From Candidatus Latescibacterota bacterium (GTDB lineage Bacteria > Latescibacterota > UBA2968), in the NCBI GenBank assembly GCA_965204745.1, contig OZ242010.1, forward strand, positions 5,283,461 through 5,347,460: a stretch of 64,000 nucleotides of DNA. The letters are read 5' to 3'. Position 1 is the first letter of the stretch. Each line of letters begins with the position of its first letter. Shown one piece after another: positions 4,131 to 56,529 of the stretch. Below the pieces are notes generated by a model. That model had not been told where the DNA came from. It saw nothing but the letters and a program-made list of their open reading frames with translations, and made no database searches. Made by a program: the position numbers and the translations under genes.

Positions 4131-4168
4131 GGCGAGAGATCAGATCGATCTCTCGCCTTTTATTTTTG
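4131..4168. terminator. Rho-independent terminator between convergent genes
   Basis: Perfect 11-bp inverted repeat ggcgagagatc/gatctctcgcc with a 5-nt loop. Followed by ttttattttt. Confidence 0.5.
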
Positions 4169-4264
4169 GCTTTCAGCAACAGGAGCCCAGTGCCTCGTCA
4201 GGGTTTTCTTTCCGCAGAAAGTTTGTTTGTCTCGGCAACTCTTGAACGAAAAATTATCGCTGCG

Positions 4265-5632
4265 TCAAATAAACCCAATCGCCCGCCAGTAGCGCAGGGT
4301 TAGGGGAAGCAGTACCGCGAGCGTGAGCGCGGAAATCAGGGACATGACGAGGACAAATTGTCCCATTCGGGCGTAGCGAAATCCGTACGCAATAATAAAG
4401 GGCGCGCTTTGATAGGGGATGAAAACCACGCCCGTGCCGATAGCCAGGCTGAGCGCGACGGGCAGGGGCGATAGGCCGAGTTGCGGGCCGAGGTCGAGCA
4501 AAACCGGAGCGAGCACCCCGCCGACCGCAGCGGTATCCATCAAAAAATCAAAGGGCACAGCCAAGCAGGCCATGAGCGCGAGTTGGGCAGTCGGGGTGTC
4601 GAGGGTTTGGAGATGGGGGATGAACGCGGACGCGAGCGCGCGGTTGAGGCCAGACTGTTCGAGTGCATGACCTATCGCAAAGATCGAGGAAATGAAGATG
4701 AGCAGGGGAAAATTGACTTTTTTGAGGGTGTCAAAAGGCAGAGGGCCCCAGCCGGGCAAATAGCAGAGGAGCACGAGGCCCAGGCCCACATAGACCGGAT
4801 GGATGCCGTGCATCGCGTCCGTCGTCCACATGACCATCCCGGCGATGAGAATGCCGAGCACCTTTTTCTCGGCTCGGGTGATCCGTGCGGGCACATCCGC
4901 GGGCGGGCGACGCGAGAGATCGGGTTGTCGCGCAGGGCGAAACAGCAACGAGATGAGGCCGTAGAGCAAGGCAACGCGCAACAGCCCGATGATGGGAAAG
5001 AGATAATACGCCCACGCGCTCCAATAGACCGAGAGGTCGCGCGATTCGAGCACGCCGAGGATGACCAAATTGGGCACGCTGGCCGTCAGAATGCCCGTGC
5101 CGCTGTAATACGTGGCGCAAGTCAGGGAGAGGACGAGGCCCGCGCTGACCTTTGAACCGGGCACTTCCCCAAGGGTTTTGAGCAGGGCAACGACTATCGG
5201 CATCATGATGAGGACGCGCACGACCCCAGAGGGAATCAGCAATGCCATAGCCACGCCGAGGATGTGCAGGCCCAAGACGAGTTGCCAATACCTATCCACG
5301 CGGTTGAGCACGAATTGAGCCAGTCGCGCGCCCAGCGGGGTTTCCGTGATGCCCAAGCTCAAGGCCATGCCCGCAAAAACGAGCCACACGGCTTTGCCGG
5401 AAAAACCTTGAAACGCGGTTTCAAAGGGCAGAACATCCAAAAGCGGAAAGAGCGCGAGGACGAAAATGGCGGTGTAGGAGATCGGGACGGGTTCAAACGT
5501 CCAGAAGATAACGGTCAGCGCAGTCAACGCGAGGGCCAACCGTGCGGATGGGATGAGGTCGCCGGGCAAGAGGAGGATGAGCAGGAACAGGACAGGCCCG
5601 AGGATGAGGCCGATGGTTTGGGAGTGAGGCAT
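4265..5632 (-). CDS. Anion permease, ArsB/NhaD superfamily (DASS/citrate-transporter-like)
   Basis: 455-aa highly hydrophobic polytopic protein with internal two-fold repeat organisation typical of this superfamily. A heptamer tandem repeat lies immediately upstream of its ATG. Confidence 0.45.
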   Translation of the reverse strand: MPHSQTIGLILGPVLFLLILLLPGDLIPSARLALALTALTVIFWTFEPVPISYTAIFVLALFPLLDVLPFETAFQGFSGKAVWLVFAGMALSLGITETPLGARLAQFVLNRVDRYWQLVLGLHILGVAMALLIPSGVVRVLIMMPIVVALLKTLGEVPGSKVSAGLVLSLTCATYYSGTGILTASVPNLVILGVLESRDLSVYWSAWAYYLFPIIGLLRVALLYGLISLLFRPARQPDLSRRPPADVPARITRAEKKVLGILIAGMVMWTTDAMHGIHPVYVGLGLVLLCYLPGWGPLPFDTLKKVNFPLLIFISSIFAIGHALEQSGLNRALASAFIPHLQTLDTPTAQLALMACLAVPFDFLMDTAAVGGVLAPVLLDLGPQLGLSPLPVALSLAIGTGVVFIPYQSAPFIIAYGFRYARMGQFVLVMSLISALTLAVLLPLTLRYWRAIGFI

Positions 5633-9119: not shown

Positions 9120-9986
9120 ATGACGTATCGACATCCACTCTTTGCCCTGCTCTTCCTCGTTGTGTGTTTTGCCGGCTATGGCGCAAGCGATGCCGGCCAT
9201 CACAAAATGCACGAAAAAAAAACCGTCACCATCCCCGACGCCAATCTGCGCGCGGTGATCGCGGATTCTTTGAAAAAGGCGAGTGATGAGGCGATCACCA
9301 CGGCTGATATGGCCATGGTGACGCGCCTCGTCGCGCCGAATGCAGGCATTGGCGATTTGACCGGATTAGAGCACGCCACCAATCTGGCACATTTGGACCT
9401 CGGCGACGCGCGCGTGGAGGAAAAGCGCGCCAATAGCAACGACATATCCGACCTGTCGCCCCTGTCTGGCCTCACCAAGTTGAGGGTGCTGGACCTCGAC
9501 CGCGCCACCTCGGTTATGGACCTCGCGCCGCTGGCCGGGCTGATGAACCTGCGAACCCTGCGCCTCAGCAACAACGAGGTAGCCGATCTGTCGCCCTTGT
9601 CTGGCGCGACCAAGTTGAGAATCCTGACGCTTGCCGGAAACAAAAAAATCATGGACATCGAGCCGCTAGCAGGCGCGACCATGTTGCGGAACCTCAATCT
9701 GAACAACACCGGCATCTCGGACCTCGCATCCCTGTCCGGGATGGCGGAACTGGTATCGCTGAATCTCAACAGCACCAAAATTATGGACCTCGCGCCCCTC
9801 TCGGGCTTGGCGAAGCTGAAAACCTTGAATATCAACAACAACAAGGTCGGCGACATCTCGCCCGTGGCGGGCTTGAGCGCACTGAGCACCCTGAACCTCA
9901 GAAACAACCCATTGGACGAAGCGGCGATCAACACGCATGTTCCGGCCCTGAAGAAACGCGGGGTCAAAGTGGGCATCGAAGAATAA
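9120..9986 (+). CDS. Secreted leucine-rich-repeat (LRR) protein, internalin-like 22-residue repeats
   Basis: Signal peptide MTYRHPLFALLFLVVCFAGYGA. At least 9 tandem repeats of the form 'L..L..L.L..N.I.DL.PLSGL'. Confidence 0.7.
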   Translation: MTYRHPLFALLFLVVCFAGYGASDAGHHKMHEKKTVTIPDANLRAVIADSLKKASDEAITTADMAMVTRLVAPNAGIGDLTGLEHATNLAHLDLGDARVEEKRANSNDISDLSPLSGLTKLRVLDLDRATSVMDLAPLAGLMNLRTLRLSNNEVADLSPLSGATKLRILTLAGNKKIMDIEPLAGATMLRNLNLNNTGISDLASLSGMAELVSLNLNSTKIMDLAPLSGLAKLKTLNINNNKVGDISPVAGLSALSTLNLRNNPLDEAAINTHVPALKKRGVKVGIEE

Positions 9987-10613: not shown

Positions 10614-13600
10614 TGGAAGTGGGAGTCGGGATAGAGGCTTCGGATGTAGGGTTCAATGGCTTGAGCGGTCGTGCGCGTAGCATTTTGCTCAATGACGTTC
10701 CCTCTGAGGAGGGCCTCGTTCCGGAAGAAGAGGACGTATCGAATGATCAGGATTATATCCGAGAACAGCCTCACATCGCCATCGCCATCCACATCGAGAA
10801 TGTTCTGATTGACCAACGTGTCGAGGTAGGGTTCAATTTCTTGAGCGGTCGTGCGCGTGGCAGTTGGCTCGATGACGTTCCCTCTGAGGAGGGCCTCTTC
10901 CCGGAAGAAGAGGACATATCGAATGACCAGGATTATATCCGAGAACAATCTCACCCGGCCATCGCCATCCACATCCAAGTTGGCACTCGAGGTTTCGTCA
11001 TCGATAATCGTCCCTGTGCCTTGCGCCGTGCTTATGGTCGCATTGGTCGCACTGCTCAGCGTCACGATCACGGTCTCGTTCTGCTCATCATCCGAGTCGT
11101 CGGTCACAGAAACAGGGATGGTCTGGATGGTATCGCCTACCGTGAAGGTCAGGGTCCCCGCGGTAAGCGCGGTGTAATCCGTCCCCGAAGTCGCGGTGCC
11201 CGTGCCCGCGTCTGCATACCCCACTGTCACTTGTGCCGTGTGCGCCGGGCGTAGGTACACCCGAAAGGTTAGGGTCGCGCCGGTCGCGCCTTCAATCACG
11301 CTTGGCGAACCGATACTCAGCGCAGGCATGCCATCGTCATCGATAATCGTCCCTGTGCCTTGCGCCGTGCTTATGGTCGCATTGGTCGCACTGCTCAGCG
11401 TCACGATCACGGTCTCGTTCGGCTCATCATCCCCGTCGTCGCTCACAGAAACAGCGATAGTCTGGCTGGTCGTGCCCGCCGCGAAGGTCAGGGTTCCTGC
11501 GGTAAGTGTGGAGTAATCCGTCCCCGAAGTCGCGGTGCCCGTGCCCGCGTCTGCATACGCCACCGTCACCTCCTTGCCGCTCACCGCATTCAATCTAACG
11601 GTGAACGTCAGGGCAGTGCCCTCAACCGCACTCGGCGAACTGATCGAGAGCCTCGGTTGCGGGTCATCATCGGTGATCGTTATTGCAGTCGGGAGGACCA
11701 CACTGCCCTGGGCGTTGGCTGATACAACGGACACGGTCACGTCGCGATTAAGTTCGTCTCGGGTGTTGTCCACCGCTGTGATGACCACCGTATCCGACGC
11801 GTTCGCGGTTTGCCCTGCCGCGATGGTGATCGTCGAATCCATCCCCACCGTGTAAGCACCGGTCACAGGGCGCACCGTGATCGTCGTCGCCGTGCTCCAC
11901 GACCGTGTCAGCGTCGCGGTCACGGTACTCATCCCGCCGCTTTCCGAGATCGACGAGGGCGTCAGGGTCAACGTCACTACCGCGGGTTGGAGTTGAAATT
12001 GCACGGTGGTGTCCATGCCGGCATACTTCAAGACCGGATACTGATCCGCCGCGCCAAAGGTCCACGGATCGTCTTTGCCCACTGCGTCGCCCGTGTTGGT
12101 ATCGCTGTCCACATTTAGGTTCCAGTTGTAGTAGGTGTCGCTGTTGGTGGCACCGTAAGTGCTCGGGCTCTGGAGATCGCGGGTGGTCTTGCCCCCGGCA
12201 ATGCCGCTCCGGTCACTGTCCCAGTAGCTATTGGTCACTGTGCCAGATGTGCTACCCACCAACCCGCCTTTCGTGCCGTCACCAGTGACCTGACCTGTCG
12301 CATAACTGGCCGTCACTTCACCGCTACTCTCGAGGCGCCCCACCAACCCGCCTTTCGTGCCGCTCCCAGTAACCGTGACCGCGCCCGTCGCATAGGACGC
12401 GATAATCGTCCCGCCGTTCTGCCACCCCACCAGACCACCGACCCAGAAATTGGCCCCACTCCCTAAGGCCGTCACAGCCGCAACGGAATAGCTAGCACTG
12501 ATGCGGCGGTTGGCACCGGTATGAGAATGCCCCACCAGACCGCCCAAGCCGTAACTGCCAGACCCCCGAACGCGACCGGTGACATAACAACCCGTGATGG
12601 CACCCCCGCGCTGATTGCCGGTGAGTCCTCCCACGGCGAGGTTGCCTCTGACATCCACATTGCGGAGCCCAAGACCGGAAACAGTGCCCGTGATATCCCG
12701 GAACAGCCCAACATCATTCTGACCGCCACGGTTGATATACAGGTTGGAGATCGTCTTGTTATTGCCCTTGAGCGTACCGGTGTAAGTCCCGAGGGGTTGC
12801 CAACCCGCGCTGCCATTCCAGTAGGTGGCGTCTGCTGAGGTGATTTCGTCGTCGCCATTCTCGTCAAAGTTGAGGTTGTTGAGCAGTTCGTAGCCGGTGC
12901 AGGTCCCAGAAGGGCAACCCATCCGGACATTGCTGGTGGTGTCGCGGTTGGGAAAGGCGGCGTTGTAGTTCATGGTATCACTATCGGCGACGATCCCATC
13001 GCCGTTGAGATCCCAGCGGATGGCATGCAGTTGTGCCAGCGTCTTAATGTCGATGAGGCCATCGCCATCCCTGTCGTAATTGATCCCCGGGGGCGTGCCC
13101 ATGACCTCGTCCGAGGGCGTGCTATCGGTCCCACCTGCCAGGGTGGCAAGGACGCGCACTGTGTAGGGCGTCCCTATCGTCAGGTTCTCTATCGTGTAGG
13201 TCGTGGTGCTGCCTCCAGAGACCGTCTCCTGGCGAGAAGAGGTGTTGTAGCTTTGTCCACCGGACTTCCACTGCACCTTGTAGCCCGTCGCGCCGGTTGC
13301 CTCGGTCCAAGCCACAATGAGTTGGCCCGGCCCAGGCGTCACGCGCACATTGGTGGGTTTATTTGTCGCCAAGGTCACCATGACTGCGTCCGAAGGAGCG
13401 CTGTCGGCTACATTGATATTGGTACTCGTGGCGATGACGCGAATCGTGTAAGTCGTCCCTGCGGTCAGCCCAGAAATTTTGTGGATCGTGGTGCTCCCGC
13501 CAGCGATTGTGGCTTGCCCGTGCGTGGCCAACGCCAGATCGGCGGTGGGATAAGTCGCTACCCCGGATTTCCACTGCACCTTATACCCAGTTGCATCGTT

Positions 13601-47754: not shown

Positions 47755-48796
47755 TGGACAAAACGCCATGACAAAAACGAACGCGCAACCCCTCCTCGAA
47801 GTGACGCAACTCAAGACCCATTTCCCAATTAAAAAGGGCATTTGGCGGCGCGTGGTGGGCTATGTCAAGGCCGTAGATGGGATCGACCTGACCCTGTACC
47901 GCGGGGAGACCCTCGGTTTGGTGGGCGAATCCGGCTGCGGCAAGACCACGGCGGGGCGGTCGATCATTCGCCTGATCGAGCCTTCGGCTGGGAAGATCGT
48001 TTTCCACCACAACGGCGAGCCGATTGACCTGCGCGGCTTGGGCAAGGAAGATATCCGCAACCTGCGGCGCGAATTGCAATACATCTTCCAAGACCCCTTC
48101 TCGTCGCTCAACCCGCGCATGACGGTTTTCGACCTCGTGGCCGAACCCCTCGTCATCAACCGAGTCGCGTCCGGCGCCGAACTCGAAGACCGCATCGAGC
48201 AGTTGCTCATCCGCGTGGGCTTGCGTCCGGATCACCTGCGCCGCTATCCCCATGCGTTTTCGGGGGGGCAACGCCAGCGCATCGGCATTGCCCGCGCCCT
48301 CGCGCTCAATCCCAAACTCGTCATTGCCGACGAGCCGGTCTCTGCCCTCGACGTGTCCGTACAAGCGCAGGTCATCAACCTCCTCGAAGACCTGCAAGAA
48401 GCCTTTGGCCTGACGTATTTGTTCATCGCGCACGACCTCGGCGTCGTGGAACACATTTCGGATCGCGTGGCGGTGATGTACCTCGGTCAGATCATCGAGA
48501 TCACCACCTCTGAGCGGCTCTATCAAAATCCCCTGCATCCCTATACCGCGGCCCTTTTATCCGCCGTTCCAGTTGCGGACCCGGATGATCGACGCCAGCG
48601 CATCTCTATCGAAGGCGATGTGCCCGATCCCGCGGATGCCCCATCCGGATGCAAATTTCACACGCGCTGCCTGTACGCGCAGGACAAGTGCAAAACAGAA
48701 GCGCCCCAGCTAAGAGAAATCGAACCGGGGCACGAGGTGAGTTGCCACTTCGCGGGCGAACTCACATTCTCCGATCACCACGTCGAACCCGCTTGA
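47747..48796 (+). CDS. ABC transporter ATP-binding protein (DppF/OppF-like)
   Basis: Walker [10 protein letters not shown], signature FSGGQRQR, Walker [13 protein letters not shown]. 8-nt overlap with the upstream gene. Confidence 0.85.
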
Positions 48797-48825
48797 CCTG
48801 GGACCGTGCTTTGGTATTTTGAAAA

Positions 48826-49104
48826 ATGAACTGGACCGTCACAATAGGTACGAGGGCACAAAAACAAATCAGGCGTTTACCCGAACAGATCAAAAAGAAT
48901 CTTGTTGCTCTGATCAGAGAGATTGAAGTGGCAGGTCCAGTTCGTGGGAACTGGCCTAATTATAGCTCTCTCGGAAGAAATCGGCACCATTGTCACATCA
49001 AAAAAGGAAGACCGACTTACGTCTCTGTTTGGGAAGTAAAGGACAAAAACATCAAACTGGTAGAGGTGACTTATGCAGGTACCCATGAAAAAGCACCGTA
49101 CTGA
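48826..49104 (+). CDS. RelE/ParE-superfamily toxin (HigB-like; toxin-first gene order)
   Basis: 92-aa basic protein (RelE/ParE-like by size and charge). Precedes and overlaps an HTH antitoxin gene. Very low GC (~43%). Confidence 0.5.
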   Translation: MNWTVTIGTRAQKQIRRLPEQIKKNLVALIREIEVAGPVRGNWPNYSSLGRNRHHCHIKKGRPTYVSVWEVKDKNIKLVEVTYAGTHEKAPY

Positions 49105-49429
49105 AGCAGACACCATTGAACTGCGCTTTCTCGGTCCGCAAGAAAAACGCAAGCAAGCCATTCGCGTACTCGATTCCATGGGCTTTGTGGATATATCCGA
49201 TTCAGTTCCCTGGCAGGCGTGTTTTTCGTATGCTGACGAACAGTTGCCCAGCATTTCTCTGGCGGGAGCAAGGGAAAAGGAAGGGTTGACACAACGAGAA
49301 CTGTCTCGGTTGACGGGCATTCCGCAACGACGTATTTCAGAAATGGAAAATGGCAAACGGCCCATTCAAAAAGAAACAGCGAAAAAACTGGGGAAAACAC
49401 TCAACATCAGCTATAAAGTCTTTCTGTGA
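49085..49429 (+). CDS. HTH XRE-family antitoxin (HigA-like)
   Basis: C-terminal helix-turn-helix LTQRELSRLTGIPQRRISEMENGKRPI. Overlaps the toxin 3' end by ~20 nt. Confidence 0.6.
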   Translation: MKKHRTEADTIELRFLGPQEKRKQAIRVLDSMGFVDISDSVPWQACFSYADEQLPSISLAGAREKEGLTQRELSRLTGIPQRRISEMENGKRPIQKETAKKLGKTLNISYKVFL

Positions 49430-49492
49430 ACCGACAGATCGCCTAAAAATATCCACTGAAATTTTTTGACGCTCGTCTTTCCGAGGGAAGCG

Positions 49493-50290
49493 ATGTCTTT
49501 GACGCAAGCGCAAATTGACCGCTTTCGCAAGTGGGGGTACGCGGTCGTGCCCGATATGTTCACGCGGCGGGAAGTGCGTGCGATGCGCGGGGAACTCGAC
49601 CGCTTCAAGCGCGAGGGGCTTCTCCGCAATGTGGCGACGGATGGCGATGGGCAAACCCATTCGCAAACGCAGATCAACTTGCAGATTTGCCCCATCACCC
49701 CCAAGAGTGCGTTTTACCGCGCCCTGCACTTTCACCCCAAGGTCATCGCGCTCGTCGAACAACTCATCGGCTCGCCCTTTGTGTTCTACCTCGATCAGAT
49801 CTTTCTCAAACCCGGCAAACAGGGCATTGGCACGGACTGGCATCAGGACAACGCCTATTTCAAAGTCAGGGACCCGGGCAAAGGCGTTGGGATGTGGGTT
49901 GCCCTGCACGATGCGACTATCGCCAACGGCACCTTGCACATCATTCCCGGCAGCCATCGAGAAAACCATGCCCACGACCGCGATCCCAACAGCGACCACC
50001 ACATTCACTGCGCCGTGCCCGAAGAGAGGGCCATCCCCATTGAATTGCCGGCCGGAGGCGCGGTCTTTTTTAATTTTGGCATCGCGCACAGCACCCGCGC
50101 AAATACCACAGCCCGAGAACGCGCGGGCCTTGCCCTGCATTTTTTGAACGCGGACTATATTCCCGAAAACATCAGAGGCACGCGGCGATATACCCACCTC
50201 ACAGGCCCTCTCGCCACGGGTGGGAAGAGGGAATACGGCCGCTGCATTGCCAACACTTGGCGCGATGAAGTGGATCGCGTGCTTGGGTGA
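49493..50290 (+). CDS. Phytanoyl-CoA dioxygenase (PhyH) family protein
   Basis: TDWHQDNAYF motif. N-terminal LTQAQIDRFRKWGYAVV is typical for the family. HxD...H iron ligands. Confidence 0.7.
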   Translation: MSLTQAQIDRFRKWGYAVVPDMFTRREVRAMRGELDRFKREGLLRNVATDGDGQTHSQTQINLQICPITPKSAFYRALHFHPKVIALVEQLIGSPFVFYLDQIFLKPGKQGIGTDWHQDNAYFKVRDPGKGVGMWVALHDATIANGTLHIIPGSHRENHAHDRDPNSDHHIHCAVPEERAIPIELPAGGAVFFNFGIAHSTRANTTARERAGLALHFLNADYIPENIRGTRRYTHLTGPLATGGKREYGRCIANTWRDEVDRVLG

Positions 50291-50594
50291 ATCGTGCGTG
50301 CCCATCCTCTCTACCCCGCCGCTTTGGGCGATGCCCCCGTGTCCGCCCGCCGAAAAAAAATTGAAATTAGCTGTTGACATGTTTCCCCAAATCAGATAGT
50401 TTTTGAGCAGAACATAGAACCTCGTGCTTTGATGCGTTTTGCATCTCTTCCGATCCCGATGGTCTCAGTCGGGAATCCTACGGGTTCGACAATCTGTAAC
50501 GGGATGCGCGGATTGTTTGGTTTTATTCGACAAGCCGATAATCCCGTTCGATTGCCCCACTTGGGATAGGGTGTCGCTTAACAAAGGAGTGGGA

Positions 50595-52394
50595 ATGAGC
50601 GAAGCCAAAGATGGCCGTTCTGGCCTTGTTTTTCCGCTACGCGATTCTTCTTCCGAAGAAATTTTCCTCATTGTGCAGTGCCTTCAGGACGCTGGTTTTT
50701 CCCGCCATGACCGAGCATGGCTGGTGCGCGTTTTTGAACGCCCAGATTGTTTTGGCGATCCCAACGGGGACGCTGTGTTGAAAGAGGCGTTTGCGGCTTC
50801 TTTTGAGCATGTTCTGCCCGGCGTCGTGGAAGAATTGGGCGAACCGGAGCAAACCGAGGAAGACAGGCAGAACCGCTTGGCACTTCTGTTCGGGTTCCTG
50901 CTTGGCTTTGGGCCGATCTACAGCGAGGTGGTTCTACCCGATGACAGGCTCGGAAAATCGGGCGACGCTTGGCATGTTCCCGCGTGGGTTGGCGCGTTCC
51001 AAAAGCACGCGAGGTTTTGTGCGAAAAGTCTGGGTTGGCAAAAACTCAATGCGTTGCGGGACGCGGGTGTTTTTCGATTCTTTGACCTGATTCCATTTCT
51101 CTTTCCCAAAGGCGTGCCATTGGCCCAGGTCGTGGAGTTGGGCTTGTTAAATCCGATTCTGCGACGCGGATGGTCGAGCGATGATTTTCGGGATCCCAGA
51201 GAACTCGAGTTTTGGTTGATCTGGCGATTTCGCACGGATGCCGAATGCCGCGACATGATTGACCTGCACACGTTATTGCGAGCGTTTTCAGAGTTTCCCG
51301 ATGGCGTTTTGGGCGATAAAATACTCGGGCTGTTGAACGCCATCGAATACGCTATGAACCTGGGATCGGCATTGGGCGATAAACGCCTGAATGCGTTGGG
51401 CGACGGATGGCGGGTTGTTGCACGGGAGTTGACGCCGTTTTGGGAACTGTTGAATGGGAAATCGCCAGAGTCGCAGCCGCAACCCTCATCCCTGCTCAAA
51501 GCATGGTGGCGGTTGGCTGTGGCGATTCACTACAAAAGTATGGGTGGGTTGGAATCCGATCTCGCCGATGAACTCAGGAACCAGCTCGTCGAAAGTGCCG
51601 CACGGCACATTGGGATTTTGCGAAAGATAGTGCGAGAAACGCCTGAAAATTTTGCAGGTAGGGATTCGACGGGAATGCCCGTTTCCGATTTTTACGACAA
51701 GGCGTTTGAAGTGCTGTGCATTTTTGCACCCCCGTGGAAATGTCTGAAGTCCTTATTGCTGGCTTTTTCCGAGATGACCGTGCCGGCCATTGCATCTGAT
51801 CTGCGGCCATGGGCAGAAGCGAACAGAGAAGCCCCGCCGCATCCGCATCATCACATCCCGCTGTGGATCGGCATCGCCATGTATCCGCAGAATCTTCGGA
51901 ATGAATTGAAGCGAGACCCGCACTTGCGGCGGTTGCGCGAGGAGTTCGCCAAATTTTGCCTCGACCGGCTCAAAACAAAAAAAATTGACACCGAGGCGAA
52001 AACCGAGGTGTCTGATTACGCAGATGAAGAATTTGTCGAACCGCGTCGCCCGTGGCGACGGTGCTATGTGCAAGCCGTAACCGCATTGCGCGTCAATCCC
52101 GGCGGCCGGGCGCACAGAACCCTGTTCTGGCTTTCTAGGAATGATCCGGATAAAACGGTCCGAGAATTTGCAAAACGAGCGCACGGACAAATTCGGCATC
52201 TCAACCGCAACAAATCGAATTTAGATCGCGGTGCATCACCCCGCCGCCCCCTATTTGAAGCCTTTTGGTGGCTTCGCCAAGCGCATCTGTTGACGCTCGA
52301 CAAACCGATTGATGAGGCGGGCGCGCTGCGAACGCGCAGAACGGAGTTGCACCGCACCCGCGAGAAAGCTGATCGCCTCAATTGGGAAGCATAG
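50595..52394 (+). CDS. Hypothetical protein (~600 aa, predominantly alpha-helical), no recognisable domain; immediately upstream of the pVip cassette
   Basis: AAGGAG SD 6 nt upstream of ATG 50595. Long uninterrupted ORF with coding-like third-position GC. ~52% GC, lower than core genes. Confidence 0.5.
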   Translation: MSEAKDGRSGLVFPLRDSSSEEIFLIVQCLQDAGFSRHDRAWLVRVFERPDCFGDPNGDAVLKEAFAASFEHVLPGVVEELGEPEQTEEDRQNRLALLFGFLLGFGPIYSEVVLPDDRLGKSGDAWHVPAWVGAFQKHARFCAKSLGWQKLNALRDAGVFRFFDLIPFLFPKGVPLAQVVELGLLNPILRRGWSSDDFRDPRELEFWLIWRFRTDAECRDMIDLHTLLRAFSEFPDGVLGDKILGLLNAIEYAMNLGSALGDKRLNALGDGWRVVARELTPFWELLNGKSPESQPQPSSLLKAWWRLAVAIHYKSMGGLESDLADELRNQLVESAARHIGILRKIVRETPENFAGRDSTGMPVSDFYDKAFEVLCIFAPPWKCLKSLLLAFSEMTVPAIASDLRPWAEANREAPPHPHHHIPLWIGIAMYPQNLRNELKRDPHLRRLREEFAKFCLDRLKTKKIDTEAKTEVSDYADEEFVEPRRPWRRCYVQAVTALRVNPGGRAHRTLFWLSRNDPDKTVREFAKRAHGQIRHLNRNKSNLDRGASPRRPLFEAFWWLRQAHLLTLDKPIDEAGALRTRRTELHRTREKADRLNWEA

Positions 52395-52442
52395 TGTCCC
52401 CCTGCGGCGATAGATACCAACGAGAAAGGAGGTGATGAGAAT

Positions 52443-52607
52443 ATGGCGAAAATCAGTGGCAATCGCTCGGGCGGTACCCGCAGTGGCGGTAAAGGTGGTC
52501 GGCAAAGCGGCGGTCAAAGCAAAAGCCGTGGAAGTGGCGGCTGGCCGAGCAAGACCGGCAACCGCTCCGGCACTGGCCGAACCAATGCCCCGCCGAAAAG
52601 CAAATGA
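52443..52607 (+). CDS. Small Gly/Ser/Lys/Arg-rich ORF (54 aa; KGG-like), uncertain
   Basis: MAKISGNRSGGTRSGGKGGRQSGGQSKSRGSGG... lies between the hypothetical gene and pVip. The alternative overlapping frame (52432, MMRIW...) has atypical codon bias. Confidence 0.3.
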   Translation: MAKISGNRSGGTRSGGKGGRQSGGQSKSRGSGGWPSKTGNRSGTGRTNAPPKSK

Positions 52608-52783
52608 ACTGATCGGAAGGTGCTGATAACGCCAGTTCATTCACGCGATCAACACCTTCCGCCAACAACTGGTGCGTCCGCACTTCGTGGCTCAATAGCC
52701 ACCCGTTTGATCTCTTCGAGATCGTGCTATGGCGCATCCTTTCAAGACAATTTTTGAATCGCCTTGTCAAAGGAGAAAGGATC

Positions 52784-53683
52784 ATGAAAATGACCATCAA
52801 TTCCCCCGATCTGTCGCAGAAAATTCCATCGGTCAACTACCATCTCTGGGAGCCGTGCAACATGCGTTGCAAGTTCTGTTTTGCCACATTTCAAGATGTC
52901 AAGCGAGACATGGAACTGCCCAAAGGTCACTTGCCGGAGAATGAGTGTCTCTCGGTCGTGGATCGACTTGCCGAAGCCGGTTTTGAAAAGATCAATTTTG
53001 CCGGCGGAGAACCCACGCTTTGCCCTTGGTTGCCAAACTTGATCAAGCGGGCAAAGAACCATGAGATGGTCACCTCCATCGTTACAAATGGATCGAGAAT
53101 CACCGATCCATGGCTGGACGGGCTGAACGGAAGTTTGGACTGGATCGCGTTGAGCATTGATACCGTTGATCCGGAAAAACTGAAACGCTCGGGTCGCGCA
53201 CTTGGTGGTGGAAAGAAACCCATGACCGAGGAAGAATATCTGGGCATCATCCGCACCGTAAAGCGACGAGGGGTTCGGCTGAAAATCAACACGGTCATCA
53301 CTTCTGAAACGTGGCAAGAGGATTTTACCGACTTCATCAGATCGGCCAAACCGGAGCGATGGAAGTTGCTCCAAGCCCTCCGCGTCGAGGGGCAAAATGA
53401 CGCGCATATCGCCGATTTCGAGATCGCGCCAGAGCAATTCGAGGCGTACGTCCAACGCAATCGCATCGTCGAAAATGACGGTATTATCGTCGTGCCAGAG
53501 AGCAATGAAATGATGACGGAAAGTTATGTCATGATCGACCCAGCGGGCCGCTTTTTTGATAACGCACAAGGTGCCCATACTTATAGCCGCCCTATTTTGG
53601 AGGTTGGCATTGAAGATGCTTTGCAGGATGTATCGGTTGACCGTGAACGTTTTCTCAAAAGAGGAGGGCAGTATGAGTGGTGA
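52784..53683 (+). CDS. Prokaryotic viperin (pVip) radical SAM antiviral nucleotide-modifying enzyme
   Basis: CNMRCKFC (CxxxCxxC). Near-collinear similarity to human viperin RSAD2 recalled from memory: NYH..R.CN..C.FCF, KINFAGGEP, SIVTNGS, KINTVI, RWKLLQAL.VEGQN, VPESNEMMTESYVMID, ILEVGIEDA, and C-terminal FLKRGGQYEW (vs FLKRGGKYIW). Confidence 0.85.
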   Translation: MKMTINSPDLSQKIPSVNYHLWEPCNMRCKFCFATFQDVKRDMELPKGHLPENECLSVVDRLAEAGFEKINFAGGEPTLCPWLPNLIKRAKNHEMVTSIVTNGSRITDPWLDGLNGSLDWIALSIDTVDPEKLKRSGRALGGGKKPMTEEEYLGIIRTVKRRGVRLKINTVITSETWQEDFTDFIRSAKPERWKLLQALRVEGQNDAHIADFEIAPEQFEAYVQRNRIVENDGIIVVPESNEMMTESYVMIDPAGRFFDNAQGAHTYSRPILEVGIEDALQDVSVDRERFLKRGGQYEW

Positions 53684-53883
53684 TACACTCCCGCGCTGAA
53701 GCGAAGCGGGGTGAGGCCGTTAGAAATGAGGAGCGAAACCTCGCTGAGAAAGTTGCCCGACGCGAGGCAGTGCTTCAGGCGTACCGGATGTTTGACCCGA
53801 TTGAGATCGATACCAGTCACCTCGATCCCGATGCCGTACTCGTAGCGGTGCTCGAGGTTCTGCACAAATCCGTATTGTGTTAA
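53677..53883 (+). pseudogene. Cytidylate-kinase-like C-terminal remnant (68 codons) overlapping pVip stop
   Basis: RNEERNLAEKVARRE...DPIEIDTSHLDPDAVLVAVLEVL resembles the Cmk C-terminus (R-D-x-R-D...[20 protein letters not shown]). No P-loop N-terminal part is present. Confidence 0.35.
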
Positions 53884-53894
53884 GCATCTGATAC

Positions 53895-53936
53895 AAAAAA
53901 GTGCCCCGGCGATGTTTTGCCGGGGCACTTTTTTTG
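53895..53936. terminator. Bidirectional Rho-independent terminator (pVip cassette / uvrA)
   Basis: aaaaaa-gtgccccggc-gatgtttt-gccggggcac-ttttttt. Perfect 10-bp GC stem flanked by A6 and T7. Confidence 0.65.
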
Positions 53937-53967
53937 TCACCGTCGAGGGTTTAATCCGCGCCATCCC

Positions 53968-56529
53968 TTAATCCGCGACAATCCGCGATCCAGACTGGAG
54001 AAACCGGCCCGTGTGGGAAGTGGGAACGCGGGTGATCGCTTCGGGGGTGCCCGTGGCGACGATGTGCCCGCCGTTTTCGCCGGCGTCGGGGCCGAGGTCG
54101 ATGATCCAGTCGGCGCGTTTGATCACGTCGAGATTGTGCTCGATGACGAGCGCGGTATTGCCGCGATCCACGAGGCGGTCGAGCACTTCGATGAGCACGC
54201 GGATGTCGTCAAAGTGCAAGCCCGTGGTGGGTTCGTCGAGCAAGTACAGGGTCTTGCCCGTGGCACTGCGCGCCAGTTCAGTGGCGAGTTTCACGCGCTG
54301 TGCCTCGCCGCCGGACAATGAGGTGGCCGCCTGCCCCAAGCGCAAATAGCCCAGGCCCACGGCTGCGAGGGAGTTGAGGTGTCGCTGTGCGGCGGGAATG
54401 TTGCGGAAAAAGGACTGCGCCTGCGCGACGGTCATGTTCAACGCGTCGGCGATGGAACTGCCCTTGTACCGGACCTCGAGGGTTTCCCGGTTGTAGCGCG
54501 TGCCCGCGCAGGTGTCGCAAGTGACGAACACATCGGGCAAGAAGTGCATCTCGATGCGGCGCACCCCATCGCCCTGACAGGCTTCGCACCGCCCGCCCTT
54601 CACATTGAAACTGAACCGGCCCGCGCCATAACCGCGCACTCGGGATTCGGGCAGTTGCGCGTACAGGTCGCGGATGGCGGTGAACGCGCCGGTGTACGTG
54701 GCGGCATTGGATCGCGGGGTGCGCCCAATGGGCGATTGGTCGATGCGGATGACCTTGTCGAGTTGCCCCATGCCCTCTATTGCGCGATGGGGCAGGGGGT
54801 CTGCATTCGCGCGGTGAAAATGCCGGGCGAGCGCGGGATACAGGGTTTGGTCGATGAGCGAACTCTTGCCGGAGCCGGACACGCCGGTGACGCACACAAA
54901 AACGCCCAGTGGAATATCCACCTCCACGTCTTGCAAATTGTGCCCACGGGCGCCCCGAATCGAGAGATGGCCGTGCGGTTGGCGCGCATCCGGAGGCGGG
55001 GGAATGGTCTTGCGCCCCGAGAGATAATCGCCGGTGAGGGATCGTTCATCGGCCATCACGGTTCGCGGCGCACCCTTTGCGATCACCCGGCCCCCGTGTT
55101 CGCCCGCGCCCGGCCCGAGGTCGATGAGATAATCGGCCATTTCCATGGCTTCGCGGTCGTGCTCGACCACGATGACCGAATTGCCCAAATCGCGCAGATT
55201 GCAAAACGCTTTGATGAGTTTGCGATTGTCGCGGGGGTGCAGGCCAATGCTCGGTTCGTCGAGCACGTACAGGACGCCAACGAGGCGCGTGCCGATTTGC
55301 GTTGCCAAGCGGATGCGCTGAAATTCGCCACCGGAAAGCGTGGTTGCCCTGCGGTTGAGCGCGAGATACCCCACGCCCACATCTGCGAGAAAGCCGAGGC
55401 GGCTTTCGATTTCGCGGATCAGGGGCGCGGCGATCTCGGCGGCATTGTCTCGCAAGTCGAGCGTTTGAAAAAACCGCCTGATCCCATCGATGGGCAGGCG
55501 GGCGATATCGGCGATGGTGCTATCGGCAAGGGTGATGGCTAGCGCCTCTGCGCGCAAGCGCGTGCCATGGCACTCGGGGCAGGTTTGATCGCGCACGCGC
55601 GAATCGGAATCGCCCGGGGCCGGATCGCTGCTAGATGGAGGCTTGCTGAATAACTCCCCGTCAGCGCCTGCGTTGGAAACCGTCCCAAGGCCATCGCAGG
55701 TCGGGCAGGCGCCATAAGGGCTGTTGAAGGAAAACAAGCGCGGTTCGATGGCGTGGATTTCAAAATGGCCCTCTGTGCAGGCAAAGCGCGTGGAGAACGT
55801 CCAGTCGCCTTTGCCGACAATGTCGAGTGTGGCCGTGCCGTCGGCCAAATCGAGCGCGGTTTCGAGCGAATCCGCGAGGCGCGAAGCCAGGTTGCCGCGC
55901 ACCACCAAGCGATCCACGACCGCGTCAATGCTGTGCGCGGCGCGTTTGTCCAAGGTGATCGCACGGTCGAGCGGCAGAATCGCGCCATCCACGCGCACGC
56001 GCAGATAGCCCGCTTTTCGCAACTGCACAAAAACGCTTTGCTGCCCGCCTTTTGCATTGCGGACCAGCGGCGCGAGCACCTGAAGGCGTTGGCCTTCGGG
56101 CAAGGCGAGCACGCGATCCACGACTGCCGCGACCGTCTCTCGGACGATGACCTGCCCACAGACCGGACAATGCGGCGTGCCAACTCTGGCAAACAAGAGG
56201 CGCAAGTGGTCATAGACTTCCGTCAACGTGCCCACGGTCGAACGCGGTGTGCGGGGCATGCCGCGCTGTTGAATTGCCACCGCAGGCGAAAGACCTTCGA
56301 TGCTGTCGGCATCGGGCTTGTCCATCAAATCGAGAAATTGCCGCGCGTACGCAGACAGGGATTCGACATAACGGCGTTGCCCTTCGGCGTAGATCGTATC
56401 AAAAGCCAACGACGATTTGCCCGACCCGGAAGGCCCGGTGATCACGACCAGACAGTTGCGCGGAATGTCCAAGTCGATATTTTTGAGGTTGTGCTGCCGC
56501 GCACCGCGAATGGTGATCGTATCGCTCAT
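53968..56529 (-). CDS. uvrA: Excinuclease ABC subunit A (UvrA family), 853 aa
   Basis: N-terminus [66 protein letters not shown]. Two ABC modules with Zn-finger Cys clusters ([25 protein letters not shown]). Confidence 0.85.

Follow-up and report, generated by a model that had tools for sequence, protein, structure and literature searches.

We analysed a window of 64,000 nucleotides (nt) from Candidatus Latescibacterota bacterium (assembly GCA_965204745.1, contig OZ242010.1, positions 5,283,461 to 5,347,460 of the forward strand), and "the window" below always means this whole stretch of DNA. It carries a gene at 50595-52394 that is the founding example of a large, uncharacterised protein family, and we use C0 as a working name both for the gene and for the family. 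Members of the C0 family are adjacent, near-obligately and in the same orientation, to a gene for prokaryotic viperin (pVip), for a B12-binding radical SAM enzyme (B12-rSAM) or for a beta-CASP nuclease, and these effectors are exchanged among loci. The module also contains three-way-junction RNA structures. We regard it as an evenly balanced proposition that C0 is a dedicated regulatory or sensor partner in a modular defence cassette made of gene, RNA and effector, in which its contribution is probably non-catalytic. The two genes at the centre of this arrangement are as follows.

50595..52394, plus strand: target gene C0, encoding a 599-amino-acid (aa) predicted all-alpha solenoid with a variable N-terminal two-thirds and a conserved, basic C-terminal 120 aa
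52784..53683, plus strand: pVip, a prokaryotic viperin of the radical SAM class and the effector of the locus (PADLOC, NCBIfam and Pfam matches)

A narrow set of enzymes downstream of C0

The gene downstream of C0 was identified as pVip in an earlier note on this DNA that was made from the sequence alone, and the identification stands. The region 52784-53683 matches the PADLOC models pVip-kinase (4.7e-114) and pVip (2.8e-89), the NCBIfam model NF038283 (viperin_w_prok, 2.8e-92) and the Pfam family Radical_SAM (1.9e-20). Overall, PADLOC pVip models match it at 1e-81 to 1e-114, and C0 matches no pVip or kinase model. Judged by these profile matches, the gene is a bona fide pVip. We rejected a start for it at GTG 52724, a codon that lies inside the RNA junction described below, and homologues begin at ATG 52784. 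pVip is a validated anti-phage defence gene whose product makes chain-terminating ddh-nucleotides.

Scanning one genome for each GTDB species gave 41 related genome loci, for which all neighbouring genes were clustered. They are labelled as metagenome-assembled genomes (MAGs) of Latescibacterota or Poribacteria, except for one labelled Vicinamibacterales and two labelled only 'bacterium' (L017, L023). In all 41 of them the next co-oriented gene after C0 is pVip, B12-rSAM and/or beta-CASP, and the outer flanks vary by lineage. The first of these partner types, pVip, is often followed by a thymidylate-kinase-like gene (PF02223; PADLOC PDC-M51B/VakA). The second is the B12-binding radical SAM enzyme (PADLOC PDC-M51A, 7.7e-86) and the third is a beta-CASP metallo-beta-lactamase nuclease (PF10996 with RMMBL).

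More distant C0 members (~25-35% identity) were collected by exact-protein look-up and a metagenome scan. They too are followed by pVip (PADLOC 3e-67 to 3e-83) or by PDC-M51A (8e-155), often across gaps of 30-140 nt. There are 86 non-redundant loci altogether, 10 of which are too short to judge. Among the 76 informative loci, 68 have pVip, B12-rSAM or beta-CASP co-oriented and directly downstream of C0, and a divergent B12-rSAM in L069 raises the count to 69. The PDC-M51A-like partner accounts for 15 of the 86 loci (7.7e-86; 8.2e-155). The earlier note had proposed C0 as a novel defence component; the linkage at 69 of 76 loci is stronger support for this idea than proximity to a defence island, whereas the association with a toxin-antitoxin (TA) module that was part of the same proposal is not conserved. 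A linkage that is nearly obligate and keeps its orientation over deep divergence, a small set of partners and a common RNA element all speak for a functional tie between C0 and the enzyme encoded downstream.

The partner types are intermixed throughout the C0 tree, from shallow to deep branches, and there are syntenic sister loci that differ only in the cassette, with pVip in L011 and beta-CASP in L015, and with beta-CASP in L003 and B12-rSAM in L008. Pairwise identities of C0 and of its partner correlate with r = 0.91 overall and 0.71 within clade, values that are confounded by phylogeny. In L032 and L023, direct repeats of ~300 nt that hold a small open reading frame (ORF), here called SMALL, flank the effector gene (L032:9820-10136 and 11668-12007; L023:1928-2090 and 4137-4300). 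In L026, a remnant of the 3' end of C0 lies ahead of a second SMALL, with direct repeats at 9742-9764 and 11737-11759. Because such repeats and the C0 remnant flank effector genes in these two-cassette loci, the effectors are apparently exchanged by recombination between conserved module sequences.

The same observations bring up the possibility that C0 is a lineage-specific housekeeping gene located beside a hotspot for the exchange of defence cassettes (SMALL, leader and effector), with no functional coupling. Such a hotspot would account for flanks that remain syntenic by lineage while the downstream gene changes, and the SMALL repeats and C0 remnant just described are what cassette exchange driven by recombination would leave behind. 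We nevertheless find this quite improbable, given that adjacency, orientation and short spacing hold in distant homologues in unrelated contexts and that the partners form a small set and do not represent defence systems at large. In addition, a junction RNA follows the C0 stop codon even where there is no known effector (L068, L078 and L090), and C0 has its own related leader.

Other genes come after C0 in some distant loci. They encode a GT2 glycosyltransferase (L074:1569-2507; L077:2985-3699) or a DUF4258 toxin-like protein (L058:5965-6300; L097:2124-2432; L100:5008-5340). A DUF4258 gene in L047 (3473-3796) sits between C0 and pVip. Downstream of the DUF4258 gene in L097 lie a C5 DNA methylase gene (PF00145, 7e-54) and a second ORF that by eye only resembles a C5 methylase. 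It is possible that the DUF4258 and GT2 genes are additional effector types. An ORF of ~130 aa with an N-terminal '(V/I)xGGDxR...' lies between the junction RNA and the effector in L073, L074, L076, L080 and L083, as recognized by eye only and within one distant subfamily. One MAG (RHO3_bin_69; L035 and L041) has two C0 genes.

Structured RNAs and a small ORF in the module

Two RNAs and one small ORF accompany C0 and pVip in the window, and a further sequence element may link the second RNA to pVip translation through the Shine-Dalgarno (SD) sequence of this gene.

50416..50488, plus strand: leader A, a three-way-junction RNA in the 5' leader of C0 (nhmmer matches and covariation)
52443..52607, plus strand: SMALL, a Gly/Ser/Arg-rich basic ORF of 54 aa with a strong SD (AAAGGAGGTGA) and the pattern MAKxSGNRSGG...GWPSKTGNxSGxGRxNAPxK
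52671..52738, plus strand: leader B, a three-way-junction RNA (P1/P1b, P2 with a CAAU loop, and P3) directly upstream of pVip, supported by covariation
52739..52779, plus strand: possible expression platform (tentative), a CCUUUC tract (52739-52743) complementary to the pVip SD GAAAGG (52775-52779)

The conserved SMALL ORF and leader B occupy the 390-nt gap between C0 and pVip, and we found no terminator-like sites between C0, SMALL and pVip.

There are 41 nhmmer matches to the ~110-nt leader B element in 36 loci, and one is located ahead of each effector gene, whatever the effector type. Loci with two effectors (L026, L030, L033 and L051) have a single C0 gene, but carry a separate RNA copy for each effector. 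This is the pattern expected of a trans factor and its cis sites. The secondary structure model is well supported by covariation: in alignment A4, 88.7% of the cells are paired compared with 35-46% in slid controls, 16 pairs are changed on both sides, and none of 500 shuffles reaches this result. The structure was set by hand, and RNAalifold on the MAFFT alignment recovered only P2. A covariance model (R1) finds one copy in the window with a score of 111 bits (match at 52661-52795), and the minimum free energy (MFE) fold of the window sequence is the same junction (-39 kcal/mol, z = -2.95). Rfam 15 gave no match to leader A or leader B at E<=1 over 48500-54200, and at E<=10 over 52600-52800 it returned only sub-threshold noise from small RNA and microRNA families. 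Tentatively, the CCUUUC tract that follows the junction might pair with the pVip SD and so form an expression platform. Across A4 this anti-SD/SD helix is 81% paired and has 2 pairs changed on both sides.

Leader A is part of a region of ~200 nt upstream of C0 that is conserved in 40+ related loci by nhmmer. In alignment A5, which comprises 28 related loci, 93.2% of its cells are paired compared with 22-45% in slid controls. Compensatory changes occur at 13 of 20 pairs and in all three helices, and none of 500 shuffles reaches this result. A second copy of leader A is present in L008 (11888-12090), downstream of the B12-rSAM gene, together with a C0-like ATGAGC... start, and it probably marks a truncated second copy of C0. 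L038 and L039 have two leader A copies each.

The distant loci lack both SMALL and the long leader. They carry a compact three-way junction of ~45-50 nt that lies 10-40 nt past the C0 stop codon and has the same layout as leader B, with P1, UU, P2 with a YAAU-type loop, P3 and P1'. The helix sequences vary freely among loci and pairing is kept. Model R1 did not reach these copies and MAFFT gave no structural register, and for these reasons we used a descriptor search with controls. The strict no-mismatch descriptor reached a score of at least 34 in 15 of 40 post-stop windows vs 16 of 339 same-locus control windows (Fisher p = 1.5e-8). Pairing in the N-padded layout is 100%, but the choice of stems was itself based on pairing, which makes this value circular. 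The three loci named above that lack a recognized effector also have the compact junction.

SMALL was found in 31 loci by a hidden Markov model, always on the plus strand and co-oriented. It is mostly located between C0 and the effector, is sometimes 3' of the effector (L042, L080) and is doubled in L023 and L032. The window copy reads MAKISGNRSGG...GGWPSKTGNRSGTGRTNAPPKSK. Differences at the three codon positions number 3965/3301/7389, such that the third position has about twice as many as either of the first two, and the synonymous codon differences amount to 4126. This third-position excess and the synonymous differences indicate that SMALL is coding. Gene callers predicted it in 8 clusters, including one with 100% identity, and it has no match in Pfam. 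An alternative frame for the small ORF, at 52432, is less conserved and was rejected.

The C0 gene and its protein family

The C0 gene is real. The earlier note had described a long clean ORF with a good SD, and indeed the ORF is single and uninterrupted, ends at 52394, and in its longest version opens at TTG 50439. We place the start at ATG 50595, because an AAAGGAG SD located 6 nt 5' of this codon and the aligned N-termini of homologues coincide there. This start position is common to >400 full-length homologues, and relatives of 572-609 aa align from M1. The product has 599 aa, a mass of 68.8 kDa and a pI of 7.7.

Base composition had suggested to the earlier reader, who set ~52% GC for C0 against ~62% for core genes, that the gene and its neighbours share a horizontal origin. 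GC at third codon positions is clearly lower in C0 (0.59) than in its neighbours (0.72-0.75), but the overall contrast is smaller than supposed, with 54.7% for C0, a window mean of 57.3% and 62.9% for uvrA. The case for a joint horizontal origin is weak, as C0 orthologues are found at the same position near uvrA in L002, L003, L004 and L008.

There are 427 C0 homologues in a word-indexed search. An exhaustive profile search of 1.84 billion representatives yields 472 C0 clusters (50% identity) at E<=1e-3 and 220 at E<=1e-30. Cluster members are mostly 530-670 aa long and align best over residues ~270-590, and all homologues are named 'hypothetical protein' in their sources. A protein search with a profile of distant members recovered mainly the same clade. 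A tblastn search with the family against plasmid and phage collections gave no match. The only viral-collection match (L043; IMGVR_UViG_3300021969_000084) is an 18-kb IMG/VR contig that encodes a 670-aa C0 homologue followed by pVip, and the same sequence is also present on a 38-kb metagenome contig (L056).

No recognizable motif had been seen in C0 from sequence inspection, and its composition had been called alpha-helical; both impressions are borne out. C0 has zero matches at E<=1 in Pfam, PADLOC, NCBIfam and PHROGs, and 71 diverse family members have no Pfam domain at E<=0.01 and nothing in NCBIfam, PADLOC or PHROGs. Sequence searches of the PDB with close and wide family profiles gave only a colicin immunity protein (E 0.9) and designed helical repeats (6e-4). 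An AlphaFold2 model built from a 45-sequence alignment (pLDDT 82.4, pTM 0.80) is nearly all helix with one small hairpin. Its best Foldseek matches in the PDB are solenoids of the ARM/HEAT/karyopherin type (TM-score 0.15-0.26, E of at least 0.02), and nothing falls below E 0.02 in either the PDB or BFVD. Pfam models for HEAT, ARM and TPR repeats give no match (E<=1). Across these profile, PDB and Foldseek searches, remote homology and structure prediction found no characterised family.

The last 120 residues of C0 are its best-conserved part (76-82% within clade and 42-51% family-wide), and the corresponding value for the N-terminal half is 9-20%. Residues 501-550 have a net charge of +8, and the conserved C-terminus is basic and rich in near-invariant Arg, Trp and His. 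The near-invariant polar residues are W487, R488, H507, D517, R534, H564, D573 and E584.

A cluster of near-invariant polar residues, along with R..H-type spacings (RAH, RQAH and R528-x6-H535), might be read as the mark of a new all-alpha enzyme, such as a HEPN-like RNase or a phosphohydrolase. Such an enzyme would serve as a second effector or would protect the cell against the products of the neighbouring enzyme. We consider this very unlikely. C0 has no HEPN profile match, and R534 and R561/H564 form no conserved canonical Rx4-6H in the wide alignment, where the motif was judged by eye. C0 also has no hydrolase match in Pfam, the PDB or Foldseek, and protection that is specific for one product would be ill-suited to partners as unlike as a nuclease and a glycosyltransferase.

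A possible role for C0

If C0 is a regulator or sensor, the most likely route is one that operates at the level of RNA. This is the most economical reading because there is an RNA copy for each effector, the effectors have unrelated folds without a shared adaptor, C0 has its own related leader, and its conserved C-terminus is basic. The operon would proceed from a structured leader to C0, then to a small three-way-junction RNA (plus the 54-aa basic protein in this lineage), and finally to an interchangeable enzyme. As the regulatory or sensing component, C0 would couple effector output to infection. Perhaps effector translation is held in check via the three-way-junction RNAs that precede C0 and the effectors, and is freed when C0 becomes engaged. 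The variable N-terminal two-thirds of C0 might present the sensing surface, and the conserved Arg/Trp/His-rich C-terminal 120 residues might serve as a common output or RNA-binding part.

A bolder version of this proposal is that C0 and the small junction RNA together form an infection-responsive gate, either as a ribonucleoprotein or as an RNA switch operated by a protein. Such a gate would define a new modular defence family with plug-in effectors (pVip, B12-radical-SAM, beta-CASP, GT2 and DUF4258). We put this forward as a tentative idea, towards which we are somewhat more sceptical than trusting.

Another possibility is that C0 works purely at the protein level as an infection sensor or adaptor, in which the N-terminal solenoid binds a phage component and the C-terminus activates or scaffolds the enzyme. 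The RNAs would then have no connection with C0 and act simply as leaders or stabilisers of the usual kind. Protein recognition is a typical task of alpha-solenoids, the variable N-terminus and conserved C-terminus of C0 suit such a division of labour, and the exchange of effectors next to a constant component recalls defence systems built from sensor and effector modules. We judge this to be unlikely, however, since the same C-terminal domain would need to bind effectors of unrelated fold (a radical-SAM barrel, metallo-beta-lactamase/beta-CASP, GT2 and DUF4258), and the effectors are of standard length and have no common adaptor extension. It also leaves unexplained why there is an RNA copy for each effector and why the motif tracks C0 across distant lineages.

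Several points weigh against a regulatory or sensory role for C0 that is exerted through RNA in a defence cassette. The beta-CASP partner has no PADLOC match, so the partners are not all known defence genes. Seven informative loci have none of the three main partners: L074 has the GT2 gene, L097 and L100 have a DUF4258 gene, and in the other four no partner was identified. Known defence genes show only slight enrichment around distant loci: PADLOC found ~4 methyltransferase and ~3 AriA/mad3-type ATPase matches among 149 flanking proteins, so that the defence-island setting envisaged in the earlier note amounts to a weak signal. In Poribacteria/Latescibacterota, C0 keeps fixed positions and seems to be inherited vertically, a pattern that an anchor gene next to a cassette hotspot would show as well. 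The protein has no recognizable RNA-binding, NTPase or catalytic domain, and its fold matches are generic ARM/HEAT solenoids with a TM-score of ~0.2. The anti-SD/SD pairing has only moderate support, and the MFE fold of the window sequence lacks it. Moreover, the RNA could respond to a metabolite directly, as a riboswitch, without any protein. Finally, that the module serves in defence, that C0 binds RNA and in which direction control would run are points that we infer from genomic context alone.

Neighbouring genes and other features

The remaining features near C0 and pVip in the window are the following.

48826..49104, plus strand: RelE-like toxin of the TA pair, 92 aa (PHROG 32175, 3e-20; RelE-like PHROG, 4e-3)
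49073..49429, plus strand: HTH_3 antitoxin of the TA pair, 118 aa, with an N-terminal extension of ~60 aa
49466..50290, plus strand: PhyH-family Fe(II)/2-oxoglutarate dioxygenase (PF05721, 7e-32)
50374..50379, plus strand: TTGACA box, a putative -35-like promoter element conserved upstream of C0
53677..53883, plus strand: kinase remnant of 68 aa that overlaps the pVip stop codon and matches the C-termini of the thymidylate-kinase-like gene of relatives

The earlier note had C0 flanked by a TA module and pVip. Both are present, but neither is immediately adjacent: the PhyH gene and a 305-nt leader lie between C0 and the TA pair, which is 1.2 kb upstream, and SMALL and leader B intervene on the other side. 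The TA pair is arranged toxin-first with a 32-nt gene overlap and a GC content of 44-48%, and the toxin has no match in Pfam or NCBIfam. There are no TA homologues near C0 in the 41 related loci, and both the TA module and the PhyH gene are missing even from loci that are 83-86% identical (L001, L002). A TA-linked function for C0 was rejected, as neither the TA pair nor the PhyH gene is conserved beside it. The PhyH gene has weak matches to ectoine-hydroxylase, PhnY and halogenase models. It is not conserved beside C0, though a distant PhyH-like gene is located upstream of C0 in L018.

The TTGACA box is aligned in most of the 28 loci of A5. The -10 element is weak (TAGTTT), and a consensus scan did not call the site.

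The kinase remnant has 64-80% identity to the last 50-55 aa of kinases of ~200 aa (L002, L026, L030 and others). The full-length kinase of relatives matches PF02223 and PADLOC PDC-M51B/VakA, and the remnant lacks the N-terminal P-loop part. With this half of the kinase deleted, the pVip of the window has therefore lost its kinase.

Implications

Prokaryotic viperins are regarded as enzymes that act alone or with help from a kinase, and a conserved partner with an RNA leader would mean that their output is controlled. If true, such control offers a way to learn how cells keep their own polymerases from being poisoned, and the gate proposed above would make this the first prokaryotic viperin under dedicated post-transcriptional control. 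The common partner C0 also nominates the B12-radical-SAM enzyme and the beta-CASP nuclease as effectors of the same logic, which gives three testable cassettes. Leaders A and B, which have good covariation, are candidates for new classes of cis-regulatory RNA. The parts of the cassette are short and clonable, and the hypothesis is therefore directly testable.

Comparison with known systems

The findings are new at the level of the family and of the module architecture. The two RNAs and SMALL are absent from the databases searched, and function is something we infer from context only. A literature search within the library available returned nothing on PDC-M51, on C0-like viperin partners, on B12-rSAM anti-phage systems or on viperin riboswitches.

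pVip systems were reportedly described by Bernheim et al. in 2021. The gene in the window is a typical pVip, and the kinase that follows it in relatives is represented here by the remnant. The preprint by Shomar et al. reports a kinase as the only viperin partner, for 12% of bacterial viperins, and mentions neither an upstream gene for a helical protein of 600 aa nor a small basic ORF or a structured leader (10.1101/2023.09.13.557418). The PADLOC pVip models likewise exclude C0.

PDC-M51 is a PADLOC candidate system in which component A is a B12-binding radical SAM enzyme and component B is a kinase. An A-like enzyme is a C0 partner and the kinase beside pVip matches PDC-M51B; however, C0 matches neither component, and PDC-M51 is itself only a candidate system.

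The module resembles retrons (reverse transcriptase, non-coding RNA and effector) and sensor-effector pairs of the Lamassu/Avs type in that a conserved component, here accompanied by a structured RNA, is combined with interchangeable effectors. It differs from them in that C0 contains none of the known core domains (reverse transcriptase, NTPase, SMC or others), and in that the RNA is a small junction in the effector leader rather than an msr/msd.

CapH/CapP in CBASS, BrxR/WYL in BREX and the leaders of ribosomal protein genes provide parallels for a regulator gene located beside the system, or for a cis element that is repeated before a regulator and its targets. Unlike CapH/CapP and BrxR/WYL, C0 has no recognizable helix-turn-helix, WYL or protease domain, and the control that we propose for it would be exerted at the RNA level.

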